Below are positions 45,370 to 55,205 of a DNA stretch of 64,000 nt, one piece after another. Below the pieces are notes generated by a model, which was given only the letters and a program-made list of their open reading frames with translations, had not been told where the DNA came from and made no database searches. The stretch is from positions 144,234 to 208,233 of the IMG/VR virus record IMGVR_UViG_3300005330_000014; one strand, written 5' to 3'. The position numbers were made by a program, and so were the translations under genes. The DNA comes from a virus. Lineage: Duplodnaviria > Caudoviricetes. Within the stretch, counting starts at the first letter, position 1. Each line of letters begins with the position of its first letter.

Positions 45370-45795
45370 ATGTTTCAAATTTTTAACCCGTTTAAATCAG
45401 TCACAAGAAATAGTGAAGTTTTAATCACTACTTGGGGCATCGCGCCCACGCACCGAATGGAAGAAGTAATTAAAAATGTTAGCCACGCGGCCAAGGTTAA
45501 ATTACTTGTTGGATTTAGTAAAGAAACACATGATTTAAAAAAACTGCATCAAACACTGATGTATTATAAAAGGTTGGGCTGGATTGTTAAAGCCATGCCC
45601 GGCTTTCATGCTAAAATTTGGTTAATTAATAATGATTGTTGGGTAGGATCGGCGAACTGGTGCCCGAATACTATTCATAATTACATGCATAGAACAAAAA
45701 TAACCACGCGAATTAGAAATTTTACAAATCTTCATTGGAAAAATTCATATAATGTAAATGAAACGACCAAACTTTGGTTGCTGGCACAAAAATAA
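45370..45795 (+). CDS. Phospholipase-D-fold nuclease (single HKD-like motif)
   Basis: FHAKIWLIN...VGSANW. Confidence 0.7.
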   Translation: MFQIFNPFKSVTRNSEVLITTWGIAPTHRMEEVIKNVSHAAKVKLLVGFSKETHDLKKLHQTLMYYKRLGWIVKAMPGFHAKIWLINNDCWVGSANWCPNTIHNYMHRTKITTRIRNFTNLHWKNSYNVNETTKLWLLAQK

Positions 45796-46274: not shown

Positions 46275-46961
46275 ATGAAAGCTAATTGGCAAGAGTTGCA
46301 AACTCAATTTTGGAAAGATGGGTATTGTATACTTGATAATTTAATTCCAAAGGATTTAGTAGAATATTGGGCTGCAATTGCTTTGGATTTATCTACTAAA
46401 CTAACTCGACAAGGGGTTAAAAAAATAGAAAAGCAATTTGATGCCGCCGATTTAGAAACACGCGACGCTGCTGGAATTTATAGTTTAGTTAGTATTCCGG
46501 GGTATGTTGCTTTTTGTGATTTTGAAAATTTAAAGATATATTATCAAAATTTAGCTAATTTTTTAAGTTTATTCACTGGATTAGATATTGTTTTAAGCGA
46601 AGATATAGAAAGTGCGGTAACTGTTATGGTTTATCCGCCTCCCGCCGGACAAATGACGGCACACTACGATACAAACCCAATCACTGTATTATTATATTTA
46701 ACTGACAATCAAGATGGTGGTACTGAATTATACCCACTAACTGCTCGCCGACCTACCACTTTAACTACAATTGATGAATTTATTGCTGATCCAATTGTTA
46801 TTCTACCAAAAGTTGGTCGCATAGTATTATTCCAAGGGCAAAAAATTTGGCATAAAGCATTACCTGTAACTAAAACTACAAAAATTAGTTCAGCATGGAA
46901 TTATTATATTAAAGGAGAAAATTGGCGACCCAAAGGGGTGTCGGAAAGATTGTATAAATAA
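46275..46961 (+). CDS. 2OG-Fe(II) dioxygenase
   Basis: HYD, VLLYL, GG, G.IVLF, WH...PV, K.S. Confidence 0.8.
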   Translation: MKANWQELQTQFWKDGYCILDNLIPKDLVEYWAAIALDLSTKLTRQGVKKIEKQFDAADLETRDAAGIYSLVSIPGYVAFCDFENLKIYYQNLANFLSLFTGLDIVLSEDIESAVTVMVYPPPAGQMTAHYDTNPITVLLYLTDNQDGGTELYPLTARRPTTLTTIDEFIADPIVILPKVGRIVLFQGQKIWHKALPVTKTTKISSAWNYYIKGENWRPKGVSERLYK

Positions 46962-46962
46962 C

Positions 46963-47697
46963 ATGGAAGCAGAAGTATGGAAGTCTATTGATGGATATGA
47001 AGGTATTTATGAAATTTCTTCATTTGGTAATGTAAGAAGCTATGCTCGTGAAACTGTATGCTTAATTAAGCCTAGGATTAACCAAGGTTATTTTATTTTA
47101 GGCTTATGGAATAAAGGCAAATGTAAAACCTCTAAAATCCATAGGTTAGTAGCATTACACTTTATTGAAAACCCCGACAACAAACCTCAAGTAAATCATA
47201 TCGACGGCAATAAACTAAATAATCATTTAGATAATTTGGAATGGGTAACACCACAAGAAAATAGTGCCCATGCCTCAAAATTAAAATTAGTAGCTTACGG
47301 CACTAGAAATGCAGCAGCAAAAATAACTGACGAAGATGTTGTTAGTATTAGAAAAATGTATGATTCCGGGGAATTTACCCAAAATCAACTATCAAATAAG
47401 TTCAATCTATCACAAGGAATTATAGGGAAAATTATTAATGGTCTGTTATGGGAGCACGTTCCATATAGCGGAGAACGTTCATTAGAACGGATTAGCTGTA
47501 ATCAATCTAATTATACTAGAAATTTACGCGGAGATAATAACTATTGGTCTAAAATCACAGAATCCCAAGTTAAAGAAATAAGAGAAATGTATAATAATGG
47601 GGATATGACTTACAAACAGATAGCAGATTTATACGGCGTTACCCCTCAAAATATTCGTTCTATTATTATTAGAAAAACATGGAAAAATCTAGAATGA
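46963..47697 (+). mobile_element. Free-standing NUMOD4-HNH homing endonuclease with two C-terminal HTH repeats
   Basis: WKSIDGYEGIYEISSFG, HRLVA..F, VNHIDGNK.NN..DNLEW; KITxxxVxxIRxMY repeated twice. Confidence 0.85.
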
Positions 47698-47942
47698 AAG
47701 AATACAATCTCAAAATACCTGAAAACACTGATTCCCGCCGCCGCGCGCCCGTCGGTAAAATTACCTTCACTTACGATAAAAGTTTTCAGAATAATTGGCA
47801 AAAATATCCAAAATTCGTGAAAACAACCATTTCAGTAATCATATATGAGAATGAAGACGTTAATAAACTGATAAGTAATTTGAAAAAGGATTATAAAAAT
47901 GCGCGGGAATTTGAAGTCATTTTAAATAATGAAACTAAATAA
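47679..47942 (+). CDS. Hypothetical protein
   Basis: Likely start ATG 47694. Confidence 0.5.
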   Translation: MEKSRMKEYNLKIPENTDSRRRAPVGKITFTYDKSFQNNWQKYPKFVKTTISVIIYENEDVNKLISNLKKDYKNAREFEVILNNETK

Positions 47943-48144
47943 TACTCAAATTAAACAACTGGCAATTTTAGGATATTTTCTAGTAGAATCTGAACCTCAA
48001 CGCTTCATCGCGGGCACTCAATTTATTGGCGGTTATGATTATGTGTCCGCCGAGGCTGCACTTAAAAGATTAGAAGAGGCGGAGCTTGTTAATCGCATCT
48101 GGAGAAGAAATTTCGGAAAAGATTTGTATAATTTAGAAAAGTAG
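47929..48144 (+). CDS. Hypothetical protein
   Basis: 71 aa. Confidence 0.5.
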   Translation: MKLNNTQIKQLAILGYFLVESEPQRFIAGTQFIGGYDYVSAEAALKRLEEAELVNRIWRRNFGKDLYNLEK

Positions 48145-48153
48145 AATCATATA
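48145..48153 (+). promoter_or_regulatory. AATCATATA motif heading a leader of about 95 nt
   Basis: Directly after the stop at 48144. Confidence 0.45.
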
Positions 48154-48248
48154 ACTCAAATACAAGATTTAAGCGCCCAATGTTTCAATGACGAAACACG
48201 GCATTAAAAACAAAAAACGCCTAACGGCAAAATAAAAAAACAAATAGT

Positions 48249-48443
48249 ATGAAGAATAGTAAGACAATCGCCGCCCGCCTCGCCTCAACTAAGGGTCGTA
48301 TCGTCGGCATTACCACGAAGTCGCGGAAATTCAATGGTCAGATTCGTTCCGTTACTCCTAGTTACGTAACTATGTATGATCGTAATGCCCAAAAGCAATT
48401 CAAATTTGCTCTAAGTTCCGTGGTTTCAGTTACTGGTGTATAA
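48249..48443 (+). CDS. Small basic protein, possible Sm/Hfq-like fold
   Basis: helix-GRIVGIT..RKFNGQI.SV...V......QFKFALSSVVSV; about 48% GC in 48301-48360. Confidence 0.5.
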   Translation: MKNSKTIAARLASTKGRIVGITTKSRKFNGQIRSVTPSYVTMYDRNAQKQFKFALSSVVSVTGV

Positions 48444-48452
48444 GTTAGTTAG

Positions 48453-48556
48453 TTTTTCCGGCCTCGGTTTTCAAACTTGGGCTAGAAAATGAGGAAGAAG
48501 TAATATCCCGTAGCAATACGGTGGGTGGATAACCTCAAAAAACAAGCCACCCAACC
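48453..48556 (+). ncRNA. Candidate structured RNA
   Basis: CCGTA-GCAA-TACGG GNRA hairpin nested in TATCC/GGATA and GAGG/CCTC; alternative pairing TGGGTGG/CCACCCA. Confidence 0.45.
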
Positions 48557-48590
48557 ACTTTCAAATAAATCAATAAAATCAACTAAAAAC

Positions 48591-48601
48591 AATTATATAA
48601 T
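48591..48601 (+). promoter_or_regulatory. AATTATATA motif with TATAAT; leaderless geometry
   Basis: TATAAT 48596-48601; ATG 48607. Confidence 0.55.
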
Positions 48602-48606
48602 TAATA

Positions 48607-48852
48607 ATGACAAACCTCAATAATATCATGAAGAATCCGGCGGATAATACTAGAGAAAAAGCTGACCGAATTTTAACACTAACTGAAGAGTTACATGACC
48701 TGCAAAATAAGCGAAAGAGTGTTGCGGCGGCTTTCACAACTCGGATTAAAGAAGTAAAACAAGACATTTTAGATGTTCTAAATGATGAACAGACCGCCGA
48801 GGAAATCGTCAAGAATGTTCATAATGAACATGATTTGGAAGTAATTAAGTAA
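48607..48852 (+). CDS. Coiled-coil hypothetical protein
   Basis: 81 aa heptad pattern. Confidence 0.55.
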   Translation: MTNLNNIMKNPADNTREKADRILTLTEELHDLQNKRKSVAAAFTTRIKEVKQDILDVLNDEQTAEEIVKNVHNEHDLEVIK

Positions 48853-48876
48853 ATTTAACAATTAAATAACAAAAAT

Positions 48877-49560
48877 ATGGCTTTAGGTAACAAAAACAAC
48901 AACGACAATAGTAAGCTTCTAATTTTAAAAATTCGGACACAAGACCTTGATAAAAAAGCGATTGATCCAATTTTTCAAGTTAATGAAAAAGTAGATGGTA
49001 AATGGGTTTCAACCGATACCACCACGGCGGTAGAAGGACAACTAACTCGGGCGGAAGTCAAAGAGGGTGAATATGAAGGGCAAAAAACCTATAATATTTC
49101 GCTATATCTAAAAGATACTGAAGCCGCCGAGACTTATCTTGTCGATCTTAAGTTAAATATGTTAACGCGTGGACTTCTAAATAGTGTTCTTAATTTAACT
49201 AAATTTGATGAAGTTAAGTTTGGTCTTTATACTGGTAAGAATGGCTATCCAAATGTTGCCGTCCGCCAGCACGGGGAAATGGTTAAATGGAAGTACTCAT
49301 TAGATGAAATGCCCACGCCCGATGAAGTAATGTTTAAGGGTAAGAAAATGCGGGATTATAGTGCGGTAGATGAATTCTTTATTGAAAAAATTAAGGAATT
49401 GGCCGCGCGAGTAAATGGTGCCGCGCCTGCAAAATCAAAAGATAAAACAGTTAATACTACTAAGGTAGTTAAATCTGAGGCGAAAGCAGAAAGTCCGGCG
49501 GATTCTGATATGTTTGACGATAAGGAATCTGATAGCACTGATGATGATAGTTTGCTATAA
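48877..49560 (+). CDS. Probable single-stranded DNA-binding protein
   Basis: Beta-rich OB-like core plus acidic tail ending DDDSLL. Confidence 0.55.
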   Translation: MALGNKNNNDNSKLLILKIRTQDLDKKAIDPIFQVNEKVDGKWVSTDTTTAVEGQLTRAEVKEGEYEGQKTYNISLYLKDTEAAETYLVDLKLNMLTRGLLNSVLNLTKFDEVKFGLYTGKNGYPNVAVRQHGEMVKWKYSLDEMPTPDEVMFKGKKMRDYSAVDEFFIEKIKELAARVNGAAPAKSKDKTVNTTKVVKSEAKAESPADSDMFDDKESDSTDDDSLL

Positions 49561-49775
49561 TGAAAAACAGAGTATCAATTACATTATCTGATAATTTAGA
49601 TAATCACGAAGCTTTTCTTAAAGTATTAGAAAATGATCTAGAAACCGAAATTAAATTCGGAGATTTCTCTTTAGGAAAATTTAAATTAGATTATCATAAT
49701 ACCTCTTCGATTAGAGGAAAACTTGCAGAAATTTCTTTAGGATTCAAAGAATGCCCAAAAAACGCTGTGGTGTAA
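49560..49775 (+). CDS. Hypothetical protein
   Basis: 71 aa. Confidence 0.5.
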   Translation: MKNRVSITLSDNLDNHEAFLKVLENDLETEIKFGDFSLGKFKLDYHNTSSIRGKLAEISLGFKECPKNAVV

Positions 49776-51670
49776 TTTCGTCTTCTCCATTAGTACGCAC
49801 GGGTTTTAGTAATAATGCCCGTGCGATTTTGCCGTTATTGTATGCAAATAATAAGTACGAAATCTTCCTTTTAGCTCAGGGGAGCGATGACCGCGATCCT
49901 ACTCTGCAAAAAATGCCGTGGAAAACTCGCGGAACGATTCGCCCGGGGGAATTTAATGAAGATTTATTTGGTCGTGATCCGAATTATCAAAGATTAGTGG
50001 CATATGGAAATCTTTCAGTCCAAAATTGGATCATTGAAAATAAGTTAGATTGTGTTATTCATATTGAAGATATTTGGAGTTCATCTGAAGAACATTATCT
50101 TAATGCTAAATGGTGGCCTTATTTCAAAGATAATTTCCTCCAATGGAGCACGGCGGATTCATTACCAATTTTAAATAACTATAAAACTTGGGCAGAAAAA
50201 TGTTCTAACGTTTGGTTATGGGCGACTTTTGGGGTTAATGCTTTACATAAAGAAAATAAAGAAAAGTATGGACATGTAAAATGTGTCCACGGAGTTTTGG
50301 ATACGACCGAATACGCTCCTATTTCTTTTCTTAAGAAGAACGAATTAAGAGATAAATTCAATATTGATCGTGATGCCGTTGTTTTCTTCAAACTCGGACG
50401 CTCACAATTAAGAAAGTTATATCCCTCAGTTTTAGAGGCTTACGCATCATTCAAAAAACAATATCCTCAATATAAAACTAAACTTCATTTTCATTGCAGC
50501 TTTTCGGAAGGTTGGCCTTATAATGATCTAATCAAGTATTATAACATTGATAAAAATGATGTTTTAGCTACTTATTTTTGCCGTTCATGTGGCGATTATG
50601 AAATCAAACCTTGGGTTGGCGAAGATCAAGATTGTCGATTCTGTAATAATAAGAAAAGTCAAATCACTGCTGGCGTAACAAGTTCAATTTCAAATAAAGA
50701 TTTATCTGATATATATGGAATTTCAGATGCTTGTATTAGCGCATTCACTTCGGGCGGCTTAGAATTTCATAATGTCCAATCATTATTATGCGGACTTCCT
50801 TTACTGTCTTCGGATTATTCATCAGGAGAAGATTTCGTTAAGAATGATTTCGTATTTAAATTAGACGGCACACATACTTATGAGGCAGGTACAGGCTTCA
50901 TTAAGCACGTTCCCAACATAAATACAATTGTTAAATATATGCGGAAGATTTGTGAAATGAATCCGCGCGAACGACAAAATATTGGCAAACAAGGACGGGA
51001 ATGGGCATTAAAAACTTTTGAGCCATTCGCTGCTATTCAAGAGCTAGAGAATTTTATTGATAATTGTCCGCCGATTACTTGGGATTACGTTTTGCCTCCC
51101 GAAAATCTAAAGAATCCCGGCGCACAAGTTCCTGATTTAGATAATCCTAAAGAATGGGTTAGAAGTCTATATAAATTAATTTTAAATATGGACATGCCGG
51201 ATGACGATACTGGCTTAAATGGTTGGGTAACTTCTTTAGCTAATGGAATGTCCAAGACTGAAATTGTTAACTACTTTAGAAAAGTTGCCAACGAAGAAAA
51301 CGAAAAGATTAACCAGAATAATCCCAAACACATTACTTTAGAAAGTTTATTCCCTAGAATTGATAATAAAAAGAATGTTCTTTTAGTTTTGCCGCAGTCA
51401 CTTGGCGATCACGTAATTTTAACAGGATTACTACCGGGAATTTACGAAAAGTACCCTTTAGATAGTCATACGATATACTTAGCCGCCGATCCTAAATTCT
51501 TTGAGGTTTATGAAGGTAATACTAACATTAAATTAGTTCCATTTGCGCTTATTATGAGGAACGAGATGGCAATGTCCGGTTCGGGCGAACACGGACCAAT
51601 TGATTATTTCATTGATGTCGCGCCCAGCACGCAAGTTCATTTAAACTATTTAACTAATAAATATGACTAA
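49751..51670 (+). CDS. Multidomain glycosyltransferase: GT4 with Zn-ribbon insert, DUF4214-like region and GT9 N-half
   Basis: TGFSNNA, FFKLGRSQLRK, TSGGLEFHNVQSLLCG, CRSC/CRFC, LYKLIL..D.GL..W, PQSLGDHV. Confidence 0.75.
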   Translation: MPKKRCGVISSSPLVRTGFSNNARAILPLLYANNKYEIFLLAQGSDDRDPTLQKMPWKTRGTIRPGEFNEDLFGRDPNYQRLVAYGNLSVQNWIIENKLDCVIHIEDIWSSSEEHYLNAKWWPYFKDNFLQWSTADSLPILNNYKTWAEKCSNVWLWATFGVNALHKENKEKYGHVKCVHGVLDTTEYAPISFLKKNELRDKFNIDRDAVVFFKLGRSQLRKLYPSVLEAYASFKKQYPQYKTKLHFHCSFSEGWPYNDLIKYYNIDKNDVLATYFCRSCGDYEIKPWVGEDQDCRFCNNKKSQITAGVTSSISNKDLSDIYGISDACISAFTSGGLEFHNVQSLLCGLPLLSSDYSSGEDFVKNDFVFKLDGTHTYEAGTGFIKHVPNINTIVKYMRKICEMNPRERQNIGKQGREWALKTFEPFAAIQELENFIDNCPPITWDYVLPPENLKNPGAQVPDLDNPKEWVRSLYKLILNMDMPDDDTGLNGWVTSLANGMSKTEIVNYFRKVANEENEKINQNNPKHITLESLFPRIDNKKNVLLVLPQSLGDHVILTGLLPGIYEKYPLDSHTIYLAADPKFFEVYEGNTNIKLVPFALIMRNEMAMSGSGEHGPIDYFIDVAPSTQVHLNYLTNKYD

Positions 51671-53592: not shown

Positions 53593-54516
53593 ATGGCTAA
53601 AAATAAGAACAAAGAAAATCAAGAAACTACTGAAGCTTTACAATTGGCAAAATCCGCCGGAGAAACTGCCCAAAACTCGGTCGAAGCTATGACGGAAGCA
53701 GTTAATGATAAATCAGCAGACTCGGGTGATTTTTGCCCTTCGGAAAAGATTAAAGTCATTCGTCAATGTAATATTGAACGCGATCATTGCGGTCTAATCA
53801 AAGGATTAGAATATGAATTTGATAGTTTAGGCTTTGTTAATTATAAGAAACTTATCCCCCGAGAATTTCTTTACCCAAACAAACAGTATTTTCAAAAACG
53901 AAAATTAGCTGTGCCTAACAGTATTGATGATTTGTCGGATTCTCAATTGATCTGCGCCCTCAATGGTTATCGTTTACTCGGCGCAATCCGTGGGTTTAAA
54001 TCGATTAAACATAAAATCATTAGCGAAAGCTATGACAAAGTAGTAATTGAAACGAAAATTATATGGATTGGTAATTATGAAACCGGATTCAAAGATGTAG
54101 CATATACTGCCTTATCCACAGCTTCTCTATCGAATACATTTGATTTTGCTCAAAATTATCTGGCTGAAATTGCTCAGAATCGTGGAGAATGTCGTGCAAT
54201 TCGTGGATTTTTACGTATTCCAATTGTAGCATCTGATGAATTAGGCCCACCGCAAAAAGAAGATGAAGAAAAAGATAGCCAAAAAGCTAAATTTGCTCCT
54301 GCTGGCCCGCACGCAATCCTTCAAAAGAAATTAAATGAAAAAAATACTTCTTGGGATAAATTTAAGGAATCTTGTATTAAGAAAAATATCCCCGGCTCAG
54401 ACACTTGGACCGATTTGGCCAGTCTGGAAACTACACAAGTAGTAACTTTAGTTGATTTGATGAATAAAAAAGAAGAAGAAAAGAATCCTCAAAAGAAACT
54501 GCCAATTGATAATTAA
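53593..54516 (+). CDS. Possible ssDNA-annealing (Rad52-like) protein
   Basis: IAQNRGECRAIRGFLRI helix resembles the Rad52/ERF-type AExRA..RA pattern; tentative. Confidence 0.35.
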   Translation: MAKNKNKENQETTEALQLAKSAGETAQNSVEAMTEAVNDKSADSGDFCPSEKIKVIRQCNIERDHCGLIKGLEYEFDSLGFVNYKKLIPREFLYPNKQYFQKRKLAVPNSIDDLSDSQLICALNGYRLLGAIRGFKSIKHKIISESYDKVVIETKIIWIGNYETGFKDVAYTALSTASLSNTFDFAQNYLAEIAQNRGECRAIRGFLRIPIVASDELGPPQKEDEEKDSQKAKFAPAGPHAILQKKLNEKNTSWDKFKESCIKKNIPGSDTWTDLASLETTQVVTLVDLMNKKEEEKNPQKKLPIDN

Positions 54517-55205
54517 GAGTCTCTCCATCTTTTATCAATTGTAATTTTAACATTGCCATAAGGCAGTGTGGCATTATCTGTTAAAATATCACATTTAGCA
54601 CCAAGAAAATCGAGTTCTCCTACAGTAATAGCATCAGGGTTTAGATTAACATTAGTCACCCCCAATATTTTATCTCCGTTATCCTTTGAATCACTAAAAA
54701 ACACCTCAAAATAATAACCTCCATTCCCGTCGCTTAAAGGAAATTCTAAGCCTTGAGACAATGAAATCAATCTTCCTATGATCATTCGGATTCTAATATT
54801 CTCTCCGGTCGCTCCTTCATCAACAAACTCAACTTCCCAATCTAAAGGATAGGCGAACGATTCTTGTCTTGGCGGAAAATGATTATTTGCTGCTCGCGAA
54901 CCTCCACCATCGGGTATACTTACGCTAGAAAAAATTCTATCGATAGAACAATATGCATTACCCGTAGGAGCAGAAATTTTTAATCGTTTAGCTTCATACC
55001 ATAATTGTTGTAATTGAAATCGGTTAAATTTTAAAGGGAATATTGATCCACGTTTGCCCAAACTTGCTAATACCCCCGGGGAAATACTTTCATTAGGAAT
55101 AATAGCGGGAAAGGGTATTCCGGTATTGTGGTCTAATTCTGCTGTTACTGTAGAATTACCAAAATTTTTCATAGCTACTCCTTGGAAATCTGGTGCGCAA
55201 TTCAT
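54513..55205 (-). CDS. Probable virion/tail-associated protein
   Basis: Last gene of the minus-strand structural block. Confidence 0.45.
   Translation of the reverse strand: MNCAPDFQGVAMKNFGNSTVTAELDHNTGIPFPAIIPNESISPGVLASLGKRGSIFPLKFNRFQLQQLWYEAKRLKISAPTGNAYCSIDRIFSSVSIPDGGGSRAANNHFPPRQESFAYPLDWEVEFVDEGATGENIRIRMIIGRLISLSQGLEFPLSDGNGGYYFEVFFSDSKDNGDKILGVTNVNLNPDAITVGELDFLGAKCDILTDNATLPYGNVKITIDKRWRDS

Follow-up and report, generated by a model that had tools for sequence, protein, structure and literature searches.

A family of small, very basic phage proteins with a predicted Sm-like fold, and the conserved pseudoknot that accompanies its gene in one clade

Small Sm-fold proteins are common in phage genomes, and almost none of them has a known function. 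Among the closest described cases is a pentameric Sm-fold protein of putative cyanophage origin, obtained from a metagenome in the 2009 work described in PMC3710371 and bioRxiv 10.1101/140376. Another is gp39 of mycobacteriophage Adephagia, which has been termed Hfq-like on the basis of its predicted structure. On the RNA side, the pseudoknot in the leader of T4 gene 32 nucleates autoregulation by the single-stranded DNA-binding protein (SSB) of that phage. It is not the existence of phage-borne Sm-like proteins that is new, since these are already known, but the family described here, which finds no match in Pfam, PHROGs, NCBIfam or among GenBank phages.

The member on which we focus, P0001, is a basic protein of 64 amino acids encoded on the plus strand at 48249-48443 (ATG start, TAA stop) of the window, by which we mean the whole stretch of 64,000 nucleotides that was analysed, i.e. 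the last 64 kb of the 208,233-bp virus record IMGVR_UViG_3300005330_000014, from rhizosphere soil. The genes of this record (DnaE, DnaB, ClpP and many glycosyltransferases) are those of a large phage. P0001 resembles the cyanophage protein in that it stands alone, belongs to a phage and was recovered from a metagenome; in the descriptions given by the two sources cited above, however, the latter has a C-terminal helix and lacks an N-terminal one, which is the reverse of P0001, and it is absent from the top 50 structural matches of our protein. The pseudoknot beside the P0001 gene, like that of the T4 gene 32 mRNA, is a compact H-type structure followed by A/U-rich sequence, here next to a probable SSB operon; unlike the T4 structure, it is linked to the Sm-fold gene upstream of it and has a conserved A-rich loop 3 (GAAAAAUAAU, about 10 nt).

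The gene and its family

A basic protein of 64 residues had been proposed at this place by the first-pass annotation, and the proposal holds: the ORF has relatives and, judging from their comparison, is a real and strongly conserved gene under purifying selection. A word-indexed search returned three close relatives (55-66% identity) and an exhaustive HMMER search 21 representatives, 18 of which are proteins of 65-90 amino acids or carry the domain at their C-terminus. A scan of IMG/VR added 24 further loci, for about 45 relatives in all, from uncultured phages (locus L140, a single weak match from the metagenome scan, is left out of our counts). Between homologues of the window's own clade (the window, L001-L003 and L141-L145, with motif and structure counts given below out of eight loci), nonsynonymous differences amount to 0.16-0.31 per site against 0.65-0.87 per site for synonymous ones, which are saturated, and dN/dS is at most 0.18 wherever it could be computed for the gene.

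Members of the family range from 64 to 90 residues and share the signature G-R-[IF]-x-G-[ILV]-x-T ... N-[GA]-Q ... [TS]-P-x-Y-V-T-x-x-D-R-N ... K. All 37 distinct members have a pI of 9.5-12.0, and P0001 itself has 12 Lys/Arg against 1 Asp/Glu, that is, a net charge of about +11 over its 64 residues. No cultured phage was matched when two members of the family were compared by tblastn with GenBank phages; PHROGs and NCBIfam returned nothing meaningful for the family, and no Pfam, PHROG or NCBIfam model reached its cut-off. Three long repeat proteins among the HMMER matches look like chance matches, akin to the NHL/'Pizza' repeats found when solved structures were searched with the family profile (a search that returned no Sm protein); these repeats are spurious, having matched the Y-V-T-D-R-N stretch. 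In one database protein, P0019, an endonuclease-like N-terminal part is fused to the Sm-fold domain.

The gene is also the most GC-rich of the 99 ORFs of the window: its coding sequence has 44.8% GC where genes average 34.3% (sd 3.1), and its GC3 is 43.8% against 27.4%. Since the amino acids of P0001 would give 38% GC under the codon usage of the genome, both composition and codon choice lie behind the observed value. Locally, 58% GC is reached at 48261-48320 (in the top 0.2% of windows), a peak to which a run made of G/C bases only (GCCGCCCGCC, 48270-79) contributes. The 48% GC reported earlier for 48301-48360 is accurate (48.3%, a value reached by only 5% of 60-nt windows), the background of about 31% quoted beside it should be about 34%, and the CGT-rich codons are indeed there (for arginine three CGT, one CGC and one CGG, with no AGA or AGG), in numbers too small to weigh.

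A foreign origin had been suggested on these grounds, and here the data contradict the suggestion. In each of the 12 homologous loci examined, the GC content of the gene exceeds that of its locus by 4-19 points even with synonymous sites saturated, and a recent import is rejected as the cause; the excess, being present at all of these loci, is an old trait of the family. Over the whole genome, the GC3 of the gene falls just below the 20 highest of 358 ORFs, because there is a block of about 50% GC elsewhere. This block of genes, at about 45-65 kb of the genome on the minus strand and outside the window, is a compositional domain apart, with a GC content of about 49-56% and GC3 values of up to 0.74 in a genome of 34.8% GC.

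Predicted fold and relation to Hfq

The AlphaFold2 model of P0001 (from an alignment of 22 sequences) has a mean pLDDT of 85.4 and consists of a helix (residues 4-13) followed by five strands. Compared with the PDB by Foldseek, it retrieves mostly Hfq (S. aureus, Listeria, Synechocystis, Methanocaldococcus) together with archaeal and eukaryotic LSm and SmAP proteins, at TM 0.64-0.79 and E values of 4e-3 to 3e-2, as is usual for domains of such small size. With the exhaustive aligner VIA, S. aureus Hfq (1kq1) is aligned over 57 residues (Z 9.2, rmsd 1.6 A), a score exceeded only by that of a designed barrel (Z 10.1); the WYL domain of PafBC (8.8), GerQ (8.7) and MnxE (8.3) follow, then the WYL domains of BrxR and CapW, LSm, YaeO and RimP. 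The neighbours of P0001 in the ESM Atlas, found by shape and language-model features (viral hypothetical clusters, DUF6897, DUF2642, GerQ, WYL, RimP and Hfq_1), are all Sm-type small barrels, and dozens of uncharacterised phage proteins in BFVD share its shape.

An Sm-like fold, with an N-terminal helix and a five-stranded bent sheet, is thus well supported by modelling. This is the fold that the first-pass annotation had claimed, and the check that it had proposed (an AlphaFold monomer compared by Foldseek) gives an Sm-like prediction, not the unrelated fold that would have spoken against the claim. Fold alone leaves an RNA chaperone, a sensor of single-stranded DNA and a self-assembling scaffold undistinguished, and the co-folding of four copies of P0001, with a score of 0.00 ('no answer'), says nothing on the oligomer either way.

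The register proposed earlier is reproduced when hhalign aligns the family with E. coli Hfq (57 columns, 25% identity, P 0.0018), and in this full-length register Q8, F42, K56 and H57 of Hfq correspond to S4, S38, K52 and F53 of P0001. Of the residues of the uridine pocket only the lysine is kept (K52, in at least 90% of members), positions 4 and 38 being variable and position 53 hydrophobic. The counterparts of Gly34/Gln35 are kept as G30 and Q31, and a near-invariant arginine (R17, in at least 90% of members) lies within a basic patch at the place of the rim arginines of Hfq. P0001 is thus like Hfq (1kq1/1kq2, 3hfo, 4nl2, 6gwk) in size, in its helix and five strands, in Gly34/Gln35, in Lys56 and in the basic patch; it differs in its pI (11.5 against 9.7 for the Hfq core) and in a family signature of its own that is devoid of Q8, F42 and H57.

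At the level of families the 'Hfq mimic' of the first-pass annotation is not borne out. A profile of 85 distinct proteobacterial Hfq domains aligned with the P0001 family over 32 columns without significance (hhalign, E 0.067, probability 0.8%), and the Pfam Hfq model (PF17209, cut-off 27 bits) matched neither P0001 nor anything else in the phage genome at E up to 1, in a search that did find Hfq in control genomes; moreover, three of the four pocket residues are missing. Pfam models touched below threshold among 22 members were DUF2642 (in two), the RimP C-terminal domain (two), Hfq (one, E 0.043) and LSM12_LSM (one, E 0.078). As for Sm/LSm (PF01423), Gly or Ala is present at position 30, where the Sm1 motif has its strand 2 glycine, but loop 3 reads T/S-P where Asp/Asn is expected and loop 5 a lysine and a hydrophobic residue where Arg-Gly is expected. 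We have filed the family as a new one with an Sm-like fold because there is no significant match to the Hfq profile and three of the four pocket residues are not conserved; on its sequence, P0001 is neither an Hfq orthologue nor a member of that family, and belongs to a phage family that has no name as yet.

Two other groups of small barrels come close. DUF2642 (PF10842), to which GerQ and CgeA are related here, gives the best Pfam match (51 of the 64 residues, 16.2 bits, E 0.01, below the gathering score of 22.7; two of the 22 members match at E up to 1), with TM 0.82-0.86 to atlas clusters besides the GerQ match already mentioned; these are Bacillota proteins, several of them components of the spore coat, unlike a basic phage protein such as P0001. 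WYL domains (PafBC, BrxR, CapW, DriD) are Sm-like barrels that bind single-stranded DNA or other ligands and align with all 64 residues of P0001 (Z 7.2-8.8), a fit that does not surpass the one with Hfq. They sit within multi-domain transcription regulators, whereas P0001 stands alone, with no helix-turn-helix (HTH) fusion, and the Pfam WYL model (PF13280) matches neither P0001 nor any of the 22 members.

Transcription unit and RNA structures of the locus

The gene had been credited with a promoter motif of its own. An extended -10-like motif, TGTATAAT, is indeed found on the plus strand at 48125-48132, within the 3' end of ORF 47929-48144, and motifs like GTATATAAT recur 60-125 nt upstream of the ATG in seven of the eight loci of the window's clade, which suggests promoter activity; there is no -35 match upstream of TGTATAAT, and hence it was not listed by a scan for consensus promoters. 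The leader (48145-48248, plus strand) contains both of the hairpins reported earlier, hairpin A (TGTTTC at 48181-86 with GAAACA at 48193-98) and hairpin B (GCC-TAAC-GGC, 48219-28), followed by about 20 A-rich nucleotides with no Shine-Dalgarno sequence, and is predicted to fold better than shuffled sequences (z -3.3).

Leaders of the clade generally have one or two small hairpins, then 20-35 A-rich nucleotides, and most lack a Shine-Dalgarno sequence; four loci give fold z-scores of -3.3, -2.6, -3.2 and -2.9, the remaining four no significant value. Hairpin stems differ between loci at the same place, with UAAC-like loops recurring in the window, L003, L142 and L002 and AAUUCC-like loops in L003, L143 and L145. 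A freshwater relative retains 48150-48281 with four substitutions and one deletion and diverges only from within the coding sequence, which hints at a constraint on the leader.

In the 208-kb genome the sequence GCCTAACGGC is present at two places only; the L003 leader has two copies as well, and the distance from the end of the sequence to the ATG is exactly 20 nt in L003 as in the window. The second GCCTAACGGC hairpin of the genome (genome coordinates 54300-54900, minus strand, about 89.4 kb before the start of the window) is preceded by a ATATATAA motif, followed by an A-rich leader and located 37 nt upstream of a 77-aa ORF (starting MKMTVLQRARFQVGD) that looks like another small beta-barrel protein; this ORF and the Sm-fold gene may share a leader element.

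An RNA contig from a rhizosphere metatranscriptome (285 nt, depth 7, 100% identity) covers 48212-48496, i.e. the gene and short flanks, among them an imperfect hairpin predicted just past the stop codon (48459-48483, plus strand). Only one other RNA contig, of depth 2, falls in 46500-50500. Such contigs fit expression and are neither a proof of transcription nor a map of transcript ends, and gaps in the coverage of the RNA run outside 48212-48496 should not be taken as silence.

The second clade (L004-L027, from IMG/VR) has another arrangement. In L016:1514-7668, for example, DnaE and a Clp-type double-AAA+ ATPase (about 810 aa) are followed by the Sm-fold gene and then by a 356-aa protein, a 153-aa protein, a GT4/DUF4214 glycosyltransferase and a GT9; the ATPase gene (800-820 aa), with DnaE before it, is upstream in all 22 loci with a recovered flank. 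The GT4/DUF4214 gene is homologous to window 49751-51670, and the module is for this reason partly common to both phages. (The 356-aa protein, cluster c4, has an H-G-H-x-x-x-D-N motif that is kinase-like, but an assignment as a kinase has no library support and was rejected.) A consensus sigma-70 promoter sequence, TTGACA-17-TAATAT, ends about 9 nt before the ATG in this clade, leaving almost no leader, and most loci have a canonical intrinsic terminator after the stop codon.

Judged by promoter-like motifs and terminator signals, the Sm-fold gene is its own expression unit in both clades, and either arrangement points to a monocistronic mRNA that is short and strongly expressed; high expression fits these designs and the RNA contig. 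The pseudoknot that we describe below is absent from the second clade, which means that a protein of the P0001 family has no need of it.

A structured 3' neighbour, claimed earlier for the window, turns out to be real and conserved in the window's clade. It is an H-type pseudoknot (48489-48553, plus strand), predicted by an unbiased search and by covariation and followed by ACCACTTTC, in which S1 pairs TGAGG (48490-94) with CCTCA (48533-37) and S2 pairs TGGGTGG (48522-28) with CCACCCA (48547-53); loop 1 contains an extra hairpin (48508-21), and loop 3 (48538-46) is A-rich. In a manual register, the same pseudoknot is found 13-45 nt past the stop in all eight loci. S1 has 5-6 bp; S2, in which the S1 loop pairs with sequence further downstream, has 6-7 bp; loop 3 is A-rich and 9-11 nt long, with the sequence GAAAAAUAAU or one close to it, and the tail reads AAAAUUUY or nearly so (ACCACUUUC in the window).

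Standard pairs occupy 95% of the 96 cells of this register; shuffling the 3' letters among sequences lowers the figure to 61%, and none of 5000 shuffles reaches the observed value; double-sided changes are seen in 11 of the 12 pairs, a number reached by 11 of 5000 shuffles (1 of 5000 with six lineages only). Since the manual register was picked by seeking pairs, these statistics lean to structure, and the fairer control is the unbiased search, which, blind to the other loci, recovered the same architecture in seven of the eight with scores that 1-3 of 100 shuffles reached in each case. The comparison of loci thus indicates that a conserved and covarying pseudoknot is present next to the Sm-fold gene.

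No Rfam model matches it, whether in the window (gathering threshold) or in seven homologous loci (E up to 10), and we found no convincing second copy in the genome. Several roles were considered for this structure and set aside. A terminator for the minus strand is disfavoured by G-U pairs in L145, L002, L142 and L141, which favour the plus strand; a readthrough or frameshift signal is ruled out by a second stop two codons past the TAA; and a PreQ1-I-like riboswitch, which the A-rich loop 3 had brought to mind, is matched by no Rfam model, and loops 1 and 2 lack the conservation of a ligand pocket.

A more serious alternative is that the pseudoknot is unrelated to the Sm-fold protein and would act, by analogy with T4 gene 32, as a translational operator or leader of the genes downstream. 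In the window the first of these encodes an 81-aa helical protein (cluster c8, 48607-48852, plus strand; syntenic in L001, L002, L003, L142 and L143, with no family match) and the second a 227-aa protein with an acidic C-terminal tail (cluster c9, 48877-49560, plus strand). In four of five sequences this tail is D-D-E-x-L-F, the window's version being D-D-D-S-L-L; a low-confidence model (pLDDT 59) matches OB-fold chains of SSB, RPA and PriB at Z 3.3-4.6 and, best of all, a phiC31 RDF chain (9teh_I, Z 7.0, 122 residues), and no family library recognises the protein. From its tail and these weak OB-fold matches it is probably an SSB, presumably of the T7 gp2.5 type.

An operon with a probable SSB would suit an operator, as would the A/U-rich unstructured stretch that separates the pseudoknot from the next start codon and is only 10-13 nt long in L001, L003, L141 and L145. 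However, the pseudoknot stays beside the Sm-fold gene in loci with other genes downstream (endonuclease VII in L003, a lipoprotein-like ORF in L141, a further ORF in L145), and is for this reason tied more closely to the Sm-fold gene than to the downstream operon; in addition, the window and L002 have a TATAAT-like motif between pseudoknot and next gene, and a transcript of that gene begun there would not include the pseudoknot. We consider an operator of this kind possible, and somewhat improbable. In the window this TATAAT (48596-48601) is only 5 nt away from the ATG at 48607, where the 81-aa gene starts (in L002 the distance is 15 nt), and the mRNA of this gene may have little or no leader.

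Possible roles of the protein

The explanation that we prefer, and to which we would give about an even chance, is that P0001 is an abundant Sm-fold protein that binds nucleic acid (probably RNA) and is produced from a short, probably highly expressed unit of its own. In this explanation, these very basic Sm-fold proteins of 64-90 residues would each be made from their own short transcription unit, would bind nucleic acid in quantity, single-stranded RNA being likelier than DNA, and may assemble into an Sm-type ring; the 5' hairpins and the 3' pseudoknot would stabilise the mRNA or allow the protein to regulate it. The parts do not stand equally firm: binding to nucleic acid is likely, RNA rather than DNA as the ligand is close to a balanced choice, assembly into a ring might go either way, and binding to the protein's own untranslated regions is rather unlikely.

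Several observations count against this preferred explanation. No RNA-binding family model reaches threshold and the comparison with the Hfq profile is not significant, variable or hydrophobic residues replace Q8, F42 and H57, and the same fold is found at similar Z in WYL domains that sense single-stranded DNA, in spore proteins (GerQ, CgeA, DUF2642), in MnxE and in RimP. The neighbouring genes, moreover, are concerned with replication and glycosyl transfer and not with RNA metabolism, the RNA contigs are no proof of transcription, and the second clade does without the pseudoknot.

DNA as the ligand deserves to be considered in its own right. P0001 could be a replication accessory that coats or senses single- or double-stranded DNA together with the SSB-like protein and the DnaE/DnaB replisome, in the manner of small chromatin proteins or of WYL domains on single-stranded DNA. 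This role would agree with the position of the gene in 22 IMG/VR loci, where it stands downstream of DnaE and the Clp-type ATPase, with the order in the window's clade, in which the probable SSB is encoded two genes further on, with the high pI of the family, and with the structural matches to WYL domains, both those bound to single-stranded DNA (CapW 9c5g, DriD 8tp8, 7tzv; Z 7.2-7.9) and those of PafBC and BrxR (Z 8.1-8.8). Yet stand-alone proteins of this size with a helix and five strands match Hfq/LSm best, WYL domains are normally fused to an HTH, and the conserved structures of the mRNA suggest, without proving it, a function at the level of RNA. We regard a DNA accessory as unlikely.

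A stronger version of the RNA reading would make the locus a self-contained RNA-protein unit of the phage, in which a P0001 ring binds the hairpins or A-rich tracts of its own leader and/or the pseudoknot, sets its own level and, at high concentration, serves as a phage-specific RNA chaperone. The first-pass annotation had proposed a gene acting with a cis-encoded RNA, an idea strengthened by the conservation of pseudoknot and leader hairpins along with the gene; the part that made the protein a mimic of Hfq does not survive at the family level. We would hold so complete a unit to be improbable, with roughly one chance against several.

It is quite improbable that P0001 acts instead through proteins, as an adaptor for the adjacent Clp-type AAA+ ATPase or for ClpP, as a GerQ/DUF2642-like polymer or as a ring that plugs the virion. 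The Clp-type double-AAA+ gene does precede the Sm-fold gene in 22 of 22 loci with an upstream flank and ClpP is encoded 5 kb upstream in the window; DUF2642 is the best sub-threshold Pfam match, GerQ filaments are matched at Z 8.7 and the T4 gp13/gp14-Hfq complex (9lu5) at Z 8.0, and host Hfq plugging T4 neck proteins in vitro offers a precedent. However, the 22 loci represent one phage clade and their adjacency counts once, the gene has its own promoter and terminator in that clade, adaptors seldom have so high a net charge (about +11 in 64 residues), and the gene lies among early and replication genes, not structural ones.

Least probable is that P0001 is a true, highly diverged orthologue or mimic of Hfq, a hexamer that replaces the host protein or competes with it in matching sRNAs to mRNAs, for the full-length alignment in the correct register, Hfq as best natural structural match and the single member of 22 that touches Pfam Hfq are outweighed by the profile result, by the lack of any Pfam Hfq match in the genome and by the loss of His57, Phe42 and Gln8.

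Being short, easily expressed and endowed with a conserved basic charge and a clear signature, the P0001 family offers an entry point into the small Sm-fold proteins of phages. In the window's clade, the pseudoknot and the leader hairpins are the natural first candidates for RNA ligands; should P0001 bind them, we would have an Sm-type regulator that is encoded by a phage and has a defined target in cis, of which there is no description so far; should its partner turn out to be DNA or Clp, the Sm barrel would have a further use in the replication modules of phages. We found no published description of an Sm-fold gene paired with a covarying pseudoknot, and no Rfam family matches; the pseudoknot is itself a candidate for a new RNA motif.

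Finally, homing-type endonuclease genes (HNH_3/NUMOD4, endonuclease VII) have been inserted repeatedly at different points around the Sm-fold gene, namely at 46963-47697 in the window, at L002:4320-5021 and at L003:879-1397. A 141-aa ORF at 45370-45795 of the window has a sub-threshold similarity (E about 1e-3) to PLD / NgoFVII-type nucleases, and is conserved in L001 beside the gene for the 2OG-Fe(II) oxygenase.
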